Source: Octopus sinensis (taxonomy: Eukaryota). Taken from it: a DNA stretch of 64,000 bases. The stretch lies in contig NW_021832612.1 of NCBI RefSeq assembly GCF_006345805.1, forward strand, positions 1-64,000, given 5' to 3'. The notes beneath the pieces were generated by a model that was given only the letters and a program-made list of their open reading frames with translations, was not told the origin of the DNA and made no database searches. Below are positions 3,689 through 52,280 of this stretch, one piece after another (position 1 is the first letter of the stretch; the number at the start of each line of letters is the position of its first letter). The translations under genes were made by a program, and so were the position numbers.

Positions 3689-3919
3689 GAAGATGTCCTT
3701 TGGATTTGATTTACAAAACTGTTCTAAGTTCAAACAATCAGTTGGGTGTCTTTAATGTTTCTAATTACAAACAATGTCTGCATAAATGCAAAGTAAAACC
3801 AAATTGCCGGTCGTTTGACTATTACTTTAATAAGAAAAGATGCCAGTTGTCAACTAAAGATCATACAATATTTCAGTTGCGTTTTCAAAAGGATTACATT
3901 TACACCGAAATAAACAGAG
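3689..3919 (+). CDS. Internal coding exon (phase 1-1, 231 nt), PAN/Apple-like domain; paralog 1 of a secreted PAN-domain gene whose upstream exons lie outside the window
   Basis: Acceptor ttttcttcttcttacag and donor AG|gtaagg. Translation RCPLDLIYKTVLSSNNQLGVFNVSNYKQCLHKCKVKPNCRSFDYYFNKKRCQLSTKDHTIFQLRFQKDYIYTEINR shows the C-x3-C-x5-C-x-SF-x-Y-x6-C-x-L PAN pattern. Paralogous exons at 24060 and 52050. Confidence 0.85.
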
Positions 3920-4071
3920 GTAAGGGCGTCATTTTCTTGTTTTTATTTATTTATTTTGTTGGAATTATACACAGTCAGTTGGACGAGATTAGGCACCACC
4001 TTCAAAAATATATCGATTGGTTAAGTCTAACTTCATATAAAGGTACGGACACATTACCAAATTAGATTCAC

Positions 4072-4395
4072 AGATAGATAGATAGATAGATAGATAGATA
4101 GATAGATAGATAGATAGATAGATAGATAGATAGATAGATAGATAGATAGATAGATAGATAGATAGATAGATAGATAGATAGATAGATAGATAGATAGATT
4201 GATAGAGGGACATACATACATAAATACATACATGCATACATGCATGCATCATTCATGCATGCATACATGGATGCATACATGTATGTACGCATACATACAT
4301 ACATGGATGCATGCATGCATACATACATACACACATACATAAATGCATGCATACACACATTCATATATAGATACATACATGCACACGCACACACT
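4072..4395. repeat. (GATA)n followed by degenerate (CATA/CATG)n microsatellite
   Basis: Directly visible; counterparts at 24414-24830 and 52468-52630. Confidence 0.95.
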
Positions 4396-4409
4396 CATAC
4401 GTACAGATA

Positions 4410-5060
4410 ACTACTAAATAATCGATGAGCAATAGGGACGAAGATAGCACCAAACCTCCATGCTGTGATGGAAAATGTCGGCTCTGCTATACCAGTGTGA
4501 AAGATGTCACCCACATCATCAGCAGTTGCGACAAAATGCCTACGAGATTCTACGTGCCCCTGAGGCATGATATAGTTGCAAAGACTATTTACGATGCTAC
4601 CCATAGGAAGGACTGCTCGGACGTATAGATCAAAGCCATGTTAGAACCAGCAAGTAATCAGACCTTTTGAAAGCAAGGAATACTGGTGGAACTCCCCACC
4701 CCCTAAAAACATCAGTTCGGTGCAAATATAGCAGACCTGATATTGTTCTGTGGTTCAGGGGAAAAAAGTCATGCACTATTGCAGGGGTCAGCTGACCAGC
4801 GGATGTGTATGTACAATCAAAAGTCTTAGGAAGATAGAACATTTAAGGCAAACTTACAGCTCTTGTACCCTGACCATAAAGTCTCGTTTGCACCTTTCAT
4901 CAGAAATGCATTAGATTATGTAGCAGAAATTTTGCACATTTGCAGAAAAACCTATAAATACTCGGTTTCACAGAGAAAGAGCAAAAGAAAAACTGACGCG
5001 GATTGTCCAAATCCAATGTTTTAGTGGCACAGTGAAGATTTGTAAAACATTCCCAAACTA
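4410..5060 (+). mobile_element. 3' fragment of a REL-endonuclease non-LTR retrotransposon (CCHC knuckle plus endonuclease remnant)
   Basis: CRLCYTSVKDVTHIISSC...RHD knuckle followed by a degenerate RPDIVLW. Duplicated at 52650-53300; a related family lies at 62550-63760. Confidence 0.7.
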
Positions 5061-50132: not shown

Positions 50133-50166
50133 ATTTATTACTATTATTATTATCATTATTATTATT

Positions 50167-51795
50167 CAGTAGTTTTATTTTTATAGCGTGCTTTCACTTC
50201 ACTACCGAGCGCAGCTCTGTATGCCTTGGGTATGTGCTGTGATTTGTTGTGATGCTCTGATGGTTATTGTATGGAAAGTGTTCTGCGTAGGATGTGTGCA
50301 GTGCCTAGTAGTGCAATTTTCTGTATGTTATATGTGTTTGTAAGTCCTGGGTTTTTGTTATGTATTTGTCTGAATATTTTTTTATCATGCCTAATGCACC
50401 TACTATGATAGGAATTGTTTCCGTTTTCAGATTCCACATTCTAGTTACCTCTATTTCCAGGTCTTTGTATTTTGAGAGTTTCTCCATTTCTTTTAGAGAC
50501 ACGTTGTCATCTGCCGGTATTGATACATCAATTAGAAAGCATTTTTTTTTTCTTCATGATCTCTGACAACTATATCTGGTCTGTTGGCTTTAATTTCTCT
50601 ATCTGTGTGTATCGGCATATCCCAGAGTATGGTTGCTTTCTCGTTTTCTGTGACCTTTTCTGGTGTGTGCCTATACCATCTTTTTTACTGTTGTTATTCC
50701 ATAATGTTGGCATAGCTTCCAGTGTATGTAGGTTCCAACTCTGTCATGTCTGTGAATATATTCCTTCTTAGCCAGGACTGGGCAGCTAGAGATAATATGA
50801 TTTATTGTTTCTTGTCCATCTCCACATATTCTGCAGTTACTTGTAATATTTCTTTTCATTACATGTTTTGGTAATTTCTGGTGGGGAGGCTTTGGTCTTG
50901 TGCTGCAATTAAAAATCCCTCTGTTTCTGCTTTGAGTCCTGAGCTTCTCAACCATTGTTGGGATTTTTCTTTGTCTATTTCTTTTGCGTTTAGTTTAGTG
51001 CAGTATTTACCATGAAGGGGCTTTTCTTGCCATCGTTTTATCATGGTCCGTTGCTGTTCTATTTTTAGTTTGGATTTCATTTGTTTTATAGCTTTTGTTG
51101 TTTCTTCATCATCTCCTTCTTCTTCTTCGTGTTTATTAGGTGGTATGATTTCTTGTTTGTATTTGTCAGCTTCCTTAAATACTGAGAACAGTTTTTGTTT
51201 TGCTCGTGTTTTGCTGCTATCTGGATCAGTTTTCCTTCCTTCTGAAGTAGGTATTTTTGCAGTCCTATGGTGGTTATTTTATAGTAGTTTTCCAGCTGTA
51301 TAAGGCCTCTACCACCTTCTATACGTTGTATATATAGTCTTTCTATGTCAGATTTTGGGTGATGCATCCTAGATCCTGTCAGTATTTTTCTTGTTTTCCT
51401 ATCTATTTTGGACAGTTCATTTCGTGTCCAGTTAAGGATATTGTAGCTGTAACTTATAACTGGGACAGCTAAAGTGTTGATACCTATTATCTTGTTTTTA
51501 GCATTGAGCTCTGTTTTTAGTATTGATCTAACTCGTCTATAATATTCTTTTTTTATTTTCTCTTTCATTTGTGTGTGTTGTGTCTTATCTAGTTCATGGA
51601 TTCCTAAGTATTTGTAAGTTTGGCTTTGGTCTAATTCTTTTATTTCATTGGTTTTATCTAGTGTGATGTTGTTACTCTTAACTAGTTTTCCTCTTTTCAT
51701 GCTTACTTTGGCGCATTTTTCTAATCCAAATTTCATATCTATTTCTTTGGTAAATCCATGAACTGTCTTTAATAGTGTTTCCAGCTGTTTGTCAT
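50167..51795 (-). mobile_element. R4/Dong-type element family 3, copy c (about 1.6 kb, 5'-truncated) in (TAA)n
   Basis: Near-identical to 42172-43780, with the same 3' terminus. Truncated just after the YMDD region and abutting (TTA)n 51795-51872. Confidence 0.93.
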
Positions 51796-52049
51796 ATTAT
51801 TATTATTATTATTATCATTATTATTATAATTATTATTATTATTATTATTATCATTATTATTATTATTATTATCCTCACTTTTATCATCACAATATTATCA
51901 CAATATTGATATTTATTAAAGAGTAGAAAATATATCTATTATTTCTCATTATTCAAAAATAATAAAACTATACAACGTGAAACAGTTCCACCAACATTAC
52001 GAAAAACTACAAACACAACAGTGATTTATTTATTTTCTTCTTCTTACAG

Positions 52050-52280
52050 GAAGATGTCCTTTTGATTTTATTGACCTTGCTGGTATACCTTCAGAGAATG
52101 ATTTGGGTAGATTTAATGACTACAGTTACACGCAATGTCTGCTTCATTGCGAAGCAATGCCAAATTGCCAATCGTTTGACTATAGCTATAATTACAAAAG
52201 ATGCTACTTGTCAACTATAGGTCATAGAACTGCTGAATTGTATTTTTACAAAAATTACATTTACACCGAAATAAACAGAG
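52050..52280 (+). CDS. Coding exon 4 (231 nt, phase 1-1), second and hypervariable PAN/Apple-like domain
   Basis: Acceptor ttttcttcttcttacag and donor AG|gtaagg. Translation RCPFDFIDLAGIPSENDLGRFNDYSYTQCLLHCEAMPNCQSFDYSYNYKRCYLSTIGHRTAELYFYKNYIYTEINR. Confidence 0.87.

Follow-up and report, generated by a model that had tools for sequence, protein, structure and literature searches.

A tandem octopus family of predicted secreted triple-PAN proteins whose hypervariable middle domain is probably diversified by selection within gene bodies likely homogenized by conversion

The DNA analyzed here is a 64,000-nucleotide (nt) stretch of the Octopus sinensis genome (RefSeq assembly GCF_006345805.1, contig NW_021832612.1, positions 1 to 64,000, forward strand; hereafter the window), which holds three copies of an exon for a PAN/Apple domain. 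We assign these to a tandem family of about 20 octopus genes that, judging from their sequences, encode secreted three-domain proteins, with the exon in question, exon 4, specifying a variable middle module (PAN2). In the explanation that we consider probable as a whole, gene conversion likely keeps the signal peptide, the first and third PAN domains (PAN1 and PAN3), and the linker alike among copies, while selection diversifies PAN2 and presumably purges conversion tracts that would run over exon 4. PAN2 would then likely set the ligand specificity of each copy, its variable strand residues forming one binding face. The family is real and undescribed, and represents a known evolutionary pattern on a new scaffold; a first-pass annotation of the window had not recognized it as described, and literature searches (most subscription journals being outside their coverage) likewise gave no paper on octopus PAN proteins.

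Exon 4 is the fourth of six exons in a gene for a 280-residue protein, laid out as a predicted signal peptide (exons 1 and 2), PAN1 (exon 3), PAN2 (exon 4), a linker with a single cysteine (exon 5), and PAN3 (exon 6). Two of its copies lie on the forward strand at 3689..3919 (copy A, phase 1-1) and 52050..52280 (copy C). Copy C is whole within the window; with the other exons located by comparing neighboring copies, every intron has GT-AG ends and falls in phase 1, and the joined exons give an uninterrupted frame of 280 residues. Exon 4 scores 41.3 and 34.1 bits against Pfam PF00024 (PAN_1), exon 3 23.6 bits, and exon 6 24.9 bits, all three domains lying above the curated cut-off of 21.4 bits, which upholds the PAN/Apple identity proposed for both exons. 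Full-length RefSeq models of relatives (276 to 282 residues) have the same exon junctions and, together with the signal peptide in exons 1 and 2, support the earlier suggestion that the family is secreted, as a prediction. PAN domains have a core of four to six conserved cysteines and are suggested mediators of protein or carbohydrate binding, according to the portion of the source drawn on here (PMC9249922); five cysteines are invariant in 24 of 24 PAN2 copies, on a predicted fold of helix plus sheet.

The contig of the window is redundant with the reverse strand of G000:C17 at 21.749-21.813 Mb (~99% identity), a chromosome-scale contig on which 13 exon-4 modules lie on both strands within 400 kb. 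Exon 1 is present in 9 of these 13 cluster copies, exons 2 and 3 in 11, and exons 5 and 6 in 12, with 8 copies complete and open in all six exons. A single giant gene with tandem or mutually exclusive PAN exons was considered and rejected, as the copies are found in both orientations and most of them come with separate exons 1-3 and 5-6. Further family copies were located at 12.9 and 14.4 Mb of C17, on C29, and on unplaced contigs. The analysis set comprised 24 distinct open exon-4 sequences (10 cluster copies and others), two of which (C29, C9518c) may be alleles; excluded were copy B of the window, two copies with insertions or deletions (C9506, C9736), redundant contigs, and the hits C8475:56590 and C8486:26012.

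Family matches came solely from O. sinensis, O. vulgaris, O. bimaculoides, and Argonauta hians (13 among 1499 candidates; a second homologue search gave 18 matches, of which 10 distant ones were looked up). None came from squid or cuttlefish, the degree of whose database coverage was not established, and exon 4 alone as query gave no match. The members include uncharacterized models named "Apple domain-containing" in O. sinensis (LOC118766702, LOC118766704, LOC118766705, LOC118766713, LOC118761179), O. bimaculoides (LOC106868906), O. vulgaris (CAI9735614.1), and A. hians (GAB1605676.1). These share the exon junctions of the window gene, and the model P0001 carries PAN1 and PAN2 of cluster copy u13; they are database entries only, several are mis-spliced, and no record matched the window's own copies. 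Six of these gene or protein identifiers were named in no paper found by literature search, and term searches of the PMC11525497 supplement and the PMC11431876 main text were without a family match, which other supplements may hold.

The first-pass annotation had contrasted exon 4 of copies A and C, and its counts were reproduced: the ungapped alignment of 76 codons has 56 nt differences, 34 codons with an amino acid change, one codon with a synonymous change only (AAG/AAA, codon 67), and a PAN2 net charge of +9 versus -2. The five cysteine codons are identical in the pair, because codon 67 is the sole silent-only change, and the first 55 bases of the intron after exon 4 are without difference across all three window copies. 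That the exon diverges faster than the introns is borne out as well, with 56 of 231 positions (24%) differing in exon 4 versus 230 of 2674 (8.6%) in five aligned intron segments (Fisher p 2e-11). The 34:1 contrast, put forward as proof of selection, does not carry that weight. The changed codons comprise 15 single, 17 double, and 2 triple changes (19 multi-base codons), and 7 to 10 synonymous steps are hidden in multi-hit codons within the 56 differences. A reading of 34:1 as a ratio of nonsynonymous to synonymous rates (dN/dS, or omega) was rejected, since at least 7 of the 56 differences are silent and omega for the pair is about 1.3-1.6 (Nei-Gojobori dN/dS, 1.3; maximum-likelihood [ML] omega, 1.56, not significantly above 1). 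For the 42 conserved codons, the intron rate leads one to expect 2.0 silent changes, with which the single one seen agrees (P 0.40). The case warns that exon-over-intron divergence may exaggerate selection.

The evidence for selection comes from codon models across the family, run with a purpose-written script rather than codeml. For the 10 cluster copies, comparison of M2a with M1a gave a likelihood-ratio test statistic (LRT) of 33, with omega 4.2 at 34% of codons; M8 versus M8a, a site test of the M7/M8 type that the first-pass annotation had proposed, also gave 33. The M2a-M1a LRT was 96 for all 24 copies and 52 for the 13 outside copies alone, and values of 17 and 53 were obtained for the 6 intact cluster copies and for an 18-copy set without doubtful copies, respectively. 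When double-nucleotide changes were allowed, the LRT was 23, and under the strictest model, with site-to-site rate variation added, all 24 copies gave an LRT of 23 (p 9e-6); omega at the family level is near 4 at about a quarter of PAN2 codons. In 47 null simulations that included heavy recombination, set up as 4 or 10 independent genealogies, the LRT never reached 33 and peaked at 20. Site variability is correlated between the cluster and the outside set (Spearman 0.62), and sites defined as variable in the outside set have a dN/dS of 2.5 (95% confidence interval 1.6-4.0) in the core, measured pairwise without a tree and against exon-wide synonymous divergence (dS). A pairwise homoplasy index (PHI) test inside exon 4 gave p 0.005 at one window size and p 0.36 at another and was not used as evidence. 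On these codon comparisons, the diversifying selection proposed for exon 4 appears well supported for the family and modestly so for the young cluster alone.

Mean protein identity is 0.49 for PAN2 (n = 24), 0.76 for PAN1 (n = 23), 0.76 for the linker (n = 24), and 0.83 for PAN3 (n = 20), and the exon 2 protein sequence is invariant in 11 of 11 cluster copies. Exon 4 has seven invariant columns; PAN2 net charge ranges from -7 to +9 across copies, and even at identities as low as 26% the 24 copies retain their reading frame and cysteines. A comparison of two O. vulgaris PAN2 domains with their O. sinensis partners shows 0 and 1 differences, respectively, in 76 residues; the diversity therefore sits among paralogues and is long-lived.

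Part of the exon-over-intron contrast is probably due to conversion: the silent sites of exon 4 are deeper, the trees of the gene regions conflict, and old PAN2 types persist in homogenized gene bodies. At conserved codons, silent divergence in exon 4 is 0.12 per site versus 0.03-0.06 in the introns near exons 2, 3, and 5 (2-3 times), although the contrast is not uniform, as intron 5 is also high (0.10). Tree dS of exon 4 is 0.71 (10 copies) versus intron tree lengths of 0.16-0.37 (9 copies), and the near flanks of exon 4 have diverged by 0.07-0.09 versus ~0.05-0.07 in most distal intron 4 bins. The comparison of divergence excludes two intron windows, one covering the 230 nt before exon 4, where a microsatellite is misaligned, and one the 300 nt after exon 6, where the terminal exon is duplicated. 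ML trees of five gene regions mostly reject one another in approximately unbiased (AU) tests, a design that favors each region's own tree. The local cluster forms one clade for exons 3, 5, and 6 together (bootstrap 93), which is rejected for exon 4 (AU p 0.004), and u10 and u13, whose exons 3, 5, and 6 are of the ordinary local kind, carry an exon 4 that belongs, with its flanks, to the distant-cluster clade (bootstrap 100).

The same mosaic extends across species. In PAN1, two proteins of O. bimaculoides group with each other (88% identity, support 93/90); in PAN2, they join different O. sinensis types, with 43% identity between the two and 76% to the respective partner (AU p 4e-43), PAN1 grouping by species and PAN2 by type across O. 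bimaculoides and O. sinensis. In terms of concerted evolution, flanks thus group by species or locus and the target exon by type, with silent divergence raised both in the target exon and beside it. Gene conversion likely homogenizes the rest of the gene, and we infer conversion, rather than unequal crossing-over, as the cause of the mosaic. The first-pass annotation had named conversion that spared an anciently diverged exon as the rival to its own reading; such a mosaic is present and accounts for part of the contrast, but the selection signal in exon 4 persists.

When mapped onto a predicted structure, as had also been proposed, the variable sites fall outside the helix. AlphaFold2 applied to the relative P0009 (49-row alignment) modelled PAN2 well, as one helix and five strands (predicted local distance difference test [pLDDT] ~70-91), and the rest poorly (full-length mean pLDDT 55; predicted template modelling score [pTM] 0.40). 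Thirteen sites have naive empirical Bayes posteriors above 0.9 (14, 15, 20, 22, 45, 48, 50, 52, 61, 62, 64, 66, and 69 in copy C exon numbering), and none falls in the helix: all are on strands or in loops, several of them spaced i, i+2. The alternate spacing suggests, on this model, that the variable residues share one sheet face. The nearest solved folds are those of SML-2, MIC4, factor XI, prekallikrein, and HGF, and ESM Atlas matches were to generic PAN clusters only. In the apple subtype, which has three disulfides, the first cysteine bonds with a sixth, C-terminal one. The lone cysteine of the exon 5 linker, conserved to Argonauta, may be this sixth cysteine for PAN2; the model has a pLDDT of less than 50 over residues 195-238.

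Several results weigh against a homogenized frame with a selected PAN2. Under the strictest model the core cluster alone gives an LRT of 7.3 (p 0.026), and a null that combines omega near 1 with rate variation is almost equal in fit; for the window pair, the LRT against an omega of 1 is only 0.85. The apparent silent divergence of the variable sites is itself high (pS 0.31), and against it their dN/dS is ~1.3. PAN1 has a weaker selection signal of its own (LRT 12.5, dropping to 5.7, p 0.06, under the strict model), so on these codon data the frame is not simply constant. The examined part of a skin-mucus peptide table (PMC10138644) held no family peptide or identifier, and the examined part of the O. 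vulgaris posterior salivary gland proteome tables (PMC7693380) no family identifier or motif, control terms being found in both; the two negatives are weak ones. The helix-versus-strand contrast of the variable sites is not significant (p 0.20), and the cross-species tree test consists of two O. bimaculoides protein models only. The O. vulgaris sequences point to no fast ongoing race at their two loci, and 5 of the 13 cluster copies appear incomplete or broken (exons absent, stop or frameshift).

As a conversion-homogenized frame with a selected specificity module, the family would be read from its genes as a repertoire of binders, with foreign surfaces, for instance glycans of microbes or parasites, as the most likely targets. 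Such targets are favored because the types are many, old, and shared across species. Within this explanation, defense-type recognition is a serious candidate to which we would give somewhat less than an even chance. More tentatively, it could be speculated that a PAN scaffold carries a germline-encoded recognition repertoire in octopods, in which a conversion-uniform frame is combined with an exchangeable, phase-symmetric specificity exon, and ancient types are kept across species and moved between clusters megabases apart.

A venom or saliva family, in which PAN2 diversifies against prey targets, would resemble the conotoxins and snake venom phospholipases A2 (PLA2s), and the signal peptide, fixed cysteine codons, invariant exon 2, and exon-over-intron divergence all fit that toxin pattern, as do omega above 1 on a fixed cysteine scaffold and a conserved signal peptide. 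Leech salivary antiplatelet proteins also have the PAN fold. We nevertheless regard a venom role as unlikely, given that sequence and structure searches gave no similarity to a named toxin and that the family was missing from the examined part of the salivary gland tables. Reproductive recognition, or a place in the egg coat (oviducal gland, egg strings, spermatophore), would suit predicted secreted proteins that were octopod-restricted in the searches made, and PAN domains in ZP-domain matrix proteins are among the structural neighbors. Gamete-recognition proteins typically diverge between species, whereas here it is paralogues that vary, the types recur in different species, and partners from sister species are 0-1 residues apart; a reproductive role accordingly has a low probability in our estimate.

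It is also conceivable that exon 4 is old and loosely constrained, mutates unevenly, and passively escaped homogenization once it was too diverged to convert, with no diversifying selection. This would agree with the silent depth of exon 4 beyond that of other regions, with its more diverged near flanks, with the strict null that fits the core nearly as well, and with an M0 omega of only 1.0-1.5. An exon-wide omega of at least 1 despite seven invariant columns nonetheless requires sites above 1, and in the full set none of the four confounder tests removes the selection signal. Frames and cysteines are also kept to low identity. Passive escape, which gives no account of why only one 231-nt exon escapes, is already disfavored and has a slim chance of being correct. 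It is very improbable that faulty assembly produced part of the array or that most of its copies are pseudogenes. Several contigs, the window included, do repeat the same copies, and 5 of 13 cluster copies have missing exons, a stop, or a frameshift. Yet 13 different exon-4 sequences, in both orientations, occur on the chromosome-scale contig itself, all six exons are open in 8 copies, and named proteins of four octopod species have the same layout.

Should the favored explanation of conversion-homogenized frames and a selected PAN2 hold, the genes would offer a clear case of gene conversion and positive selection working on different exons of one gene. The discrimination of foreign surfaces by cephalopods is little known, and a near-constant frame with a single-exon variable domain would be easy to test with 76-residue PAN2 units and 13 candidate specificity residues.

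All family exons of the window lie on the forward strand. Copy A continues from its PAN2 exon into exon 5, for the linker with its single conserved cysteine (14078..14173), and exon 6, for PAN3 up to the stop codon (14679..14875), and its exons 1-3 lie outside the window, on C17. Copy B is an orphan broken exon 4 (24060..24225), out of frame and 71 nt shorter than its nearest relative; no other exons were found for it. Copies A and B mirror u3 and u2 (C17, 21.70-21.74 Mb), an intact gene followed by an orphan exon-4 module, and copy B and u2 differ at 2 of 160 compared bases, indicating recent segmental duplication; the orphan module might conceivably serve as an alternative cassette. In copy C, the ATG and the predicted start of the signal peptide lie in the coding part of exon 1 (33970..34000) and its predicted end in exon 2 (37234..37269), followed by the conserved PAN1 exon, homogenized within species (37828..38085), the hypervariable PAN2 exon already described, the linker exon with a conserved Gly-Cys (56843..56938), and the PAN3 exon with its stop (57634..57824). 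Copy C also has a second open terminal exon for PAN3 (58394..58584), a duplicate that shares 92% identity with exon 6; u11 carries such an open duplicate too, and alternative last exons are possible.

Other features of the window include LINE-like (long interspersed nuclear element) reverse-transcriptase frames of 984 residues (6863-9814, reverse strand) and 390 residues (43523-44692, reverse strand) within introns of copies A and C. A tandem repeat of ~184 bases in intron 3 (46300-47170) is common to several cluster copies, and a 424-base direct duplication with 99% identity lies at 28539-29345, where the alignment to C17 breaks. Elsewhere in the genome, C17 39.2-39.5 Mb holds a more distant subfamily with triple PAN and a Gly-Cys linker, which shows the same pattern against O. 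bimaculoides P0026 (PAN2-type exons 48-51%, other exons 64-75%). The contig to which the window belongs has, at G000:C9083 88571-88798, a second exon equal in score and identity to that of copy A, of which C17 has one; this is possibly a misassembly. At L087-L088 (C17, 14.42-14.44 Mb), one copy has its exon 5 on the strand opposite its exon 4, through inversion or misassembly.

Among known systems, conotoxin and snake venom PLA2 genes have a conserved signal exon, fixed cysteine codons, and an exon more diverged than the introns. The octopus PAN family is like them in the conserved signal exon, fixed cysteine codons, and diverged exon, and unlike them in that one of three like domains is hypervariable, that part of the contrast comes from conversion, and that the family is known here from genes alone. 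Snail FREPs, bivalve C1qDC proteins, and sea urchin Sp185/333 are diversified, tandem, secreted families with constant and variable parts and conversion among copies. The octopus family is likewise tandem and predicted secreted, with constant and variable parts, on a different scaffold, and is again known from genes. The best sequence and fold matches are the apple domains of SML-2 (PDB 2yil), MIC4 (4a5v), factor XI, and prekallikrein, all of them tandem PAN/apple modules with galactose or peptides as ligands; SML-2/MIC4-type matches have ~16% identity and are not orthologues, and the likeness rests on fold.

The evolutionary pattern is that of the human red/green opsins, as far as the portion of the source drawn on here describes them (PMC3924837). 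There, exon 5 is a peak of divergence in paralogues homogenized in their introns and most exons, this one exon grouping by type across species, and the signature was ascribed to selection restricting conversion (Fawcett and Innan 2011, in PMC3924837). Octopus exon 4 shares the grouping by type across species within homogenized genes. Whereas the opsin case involves two genes and two key residues (PMC3924837), in the octopus the number of copies is about 20, the divergence takes in a whole domain, and omega exceeds 1 inside the protected exon.

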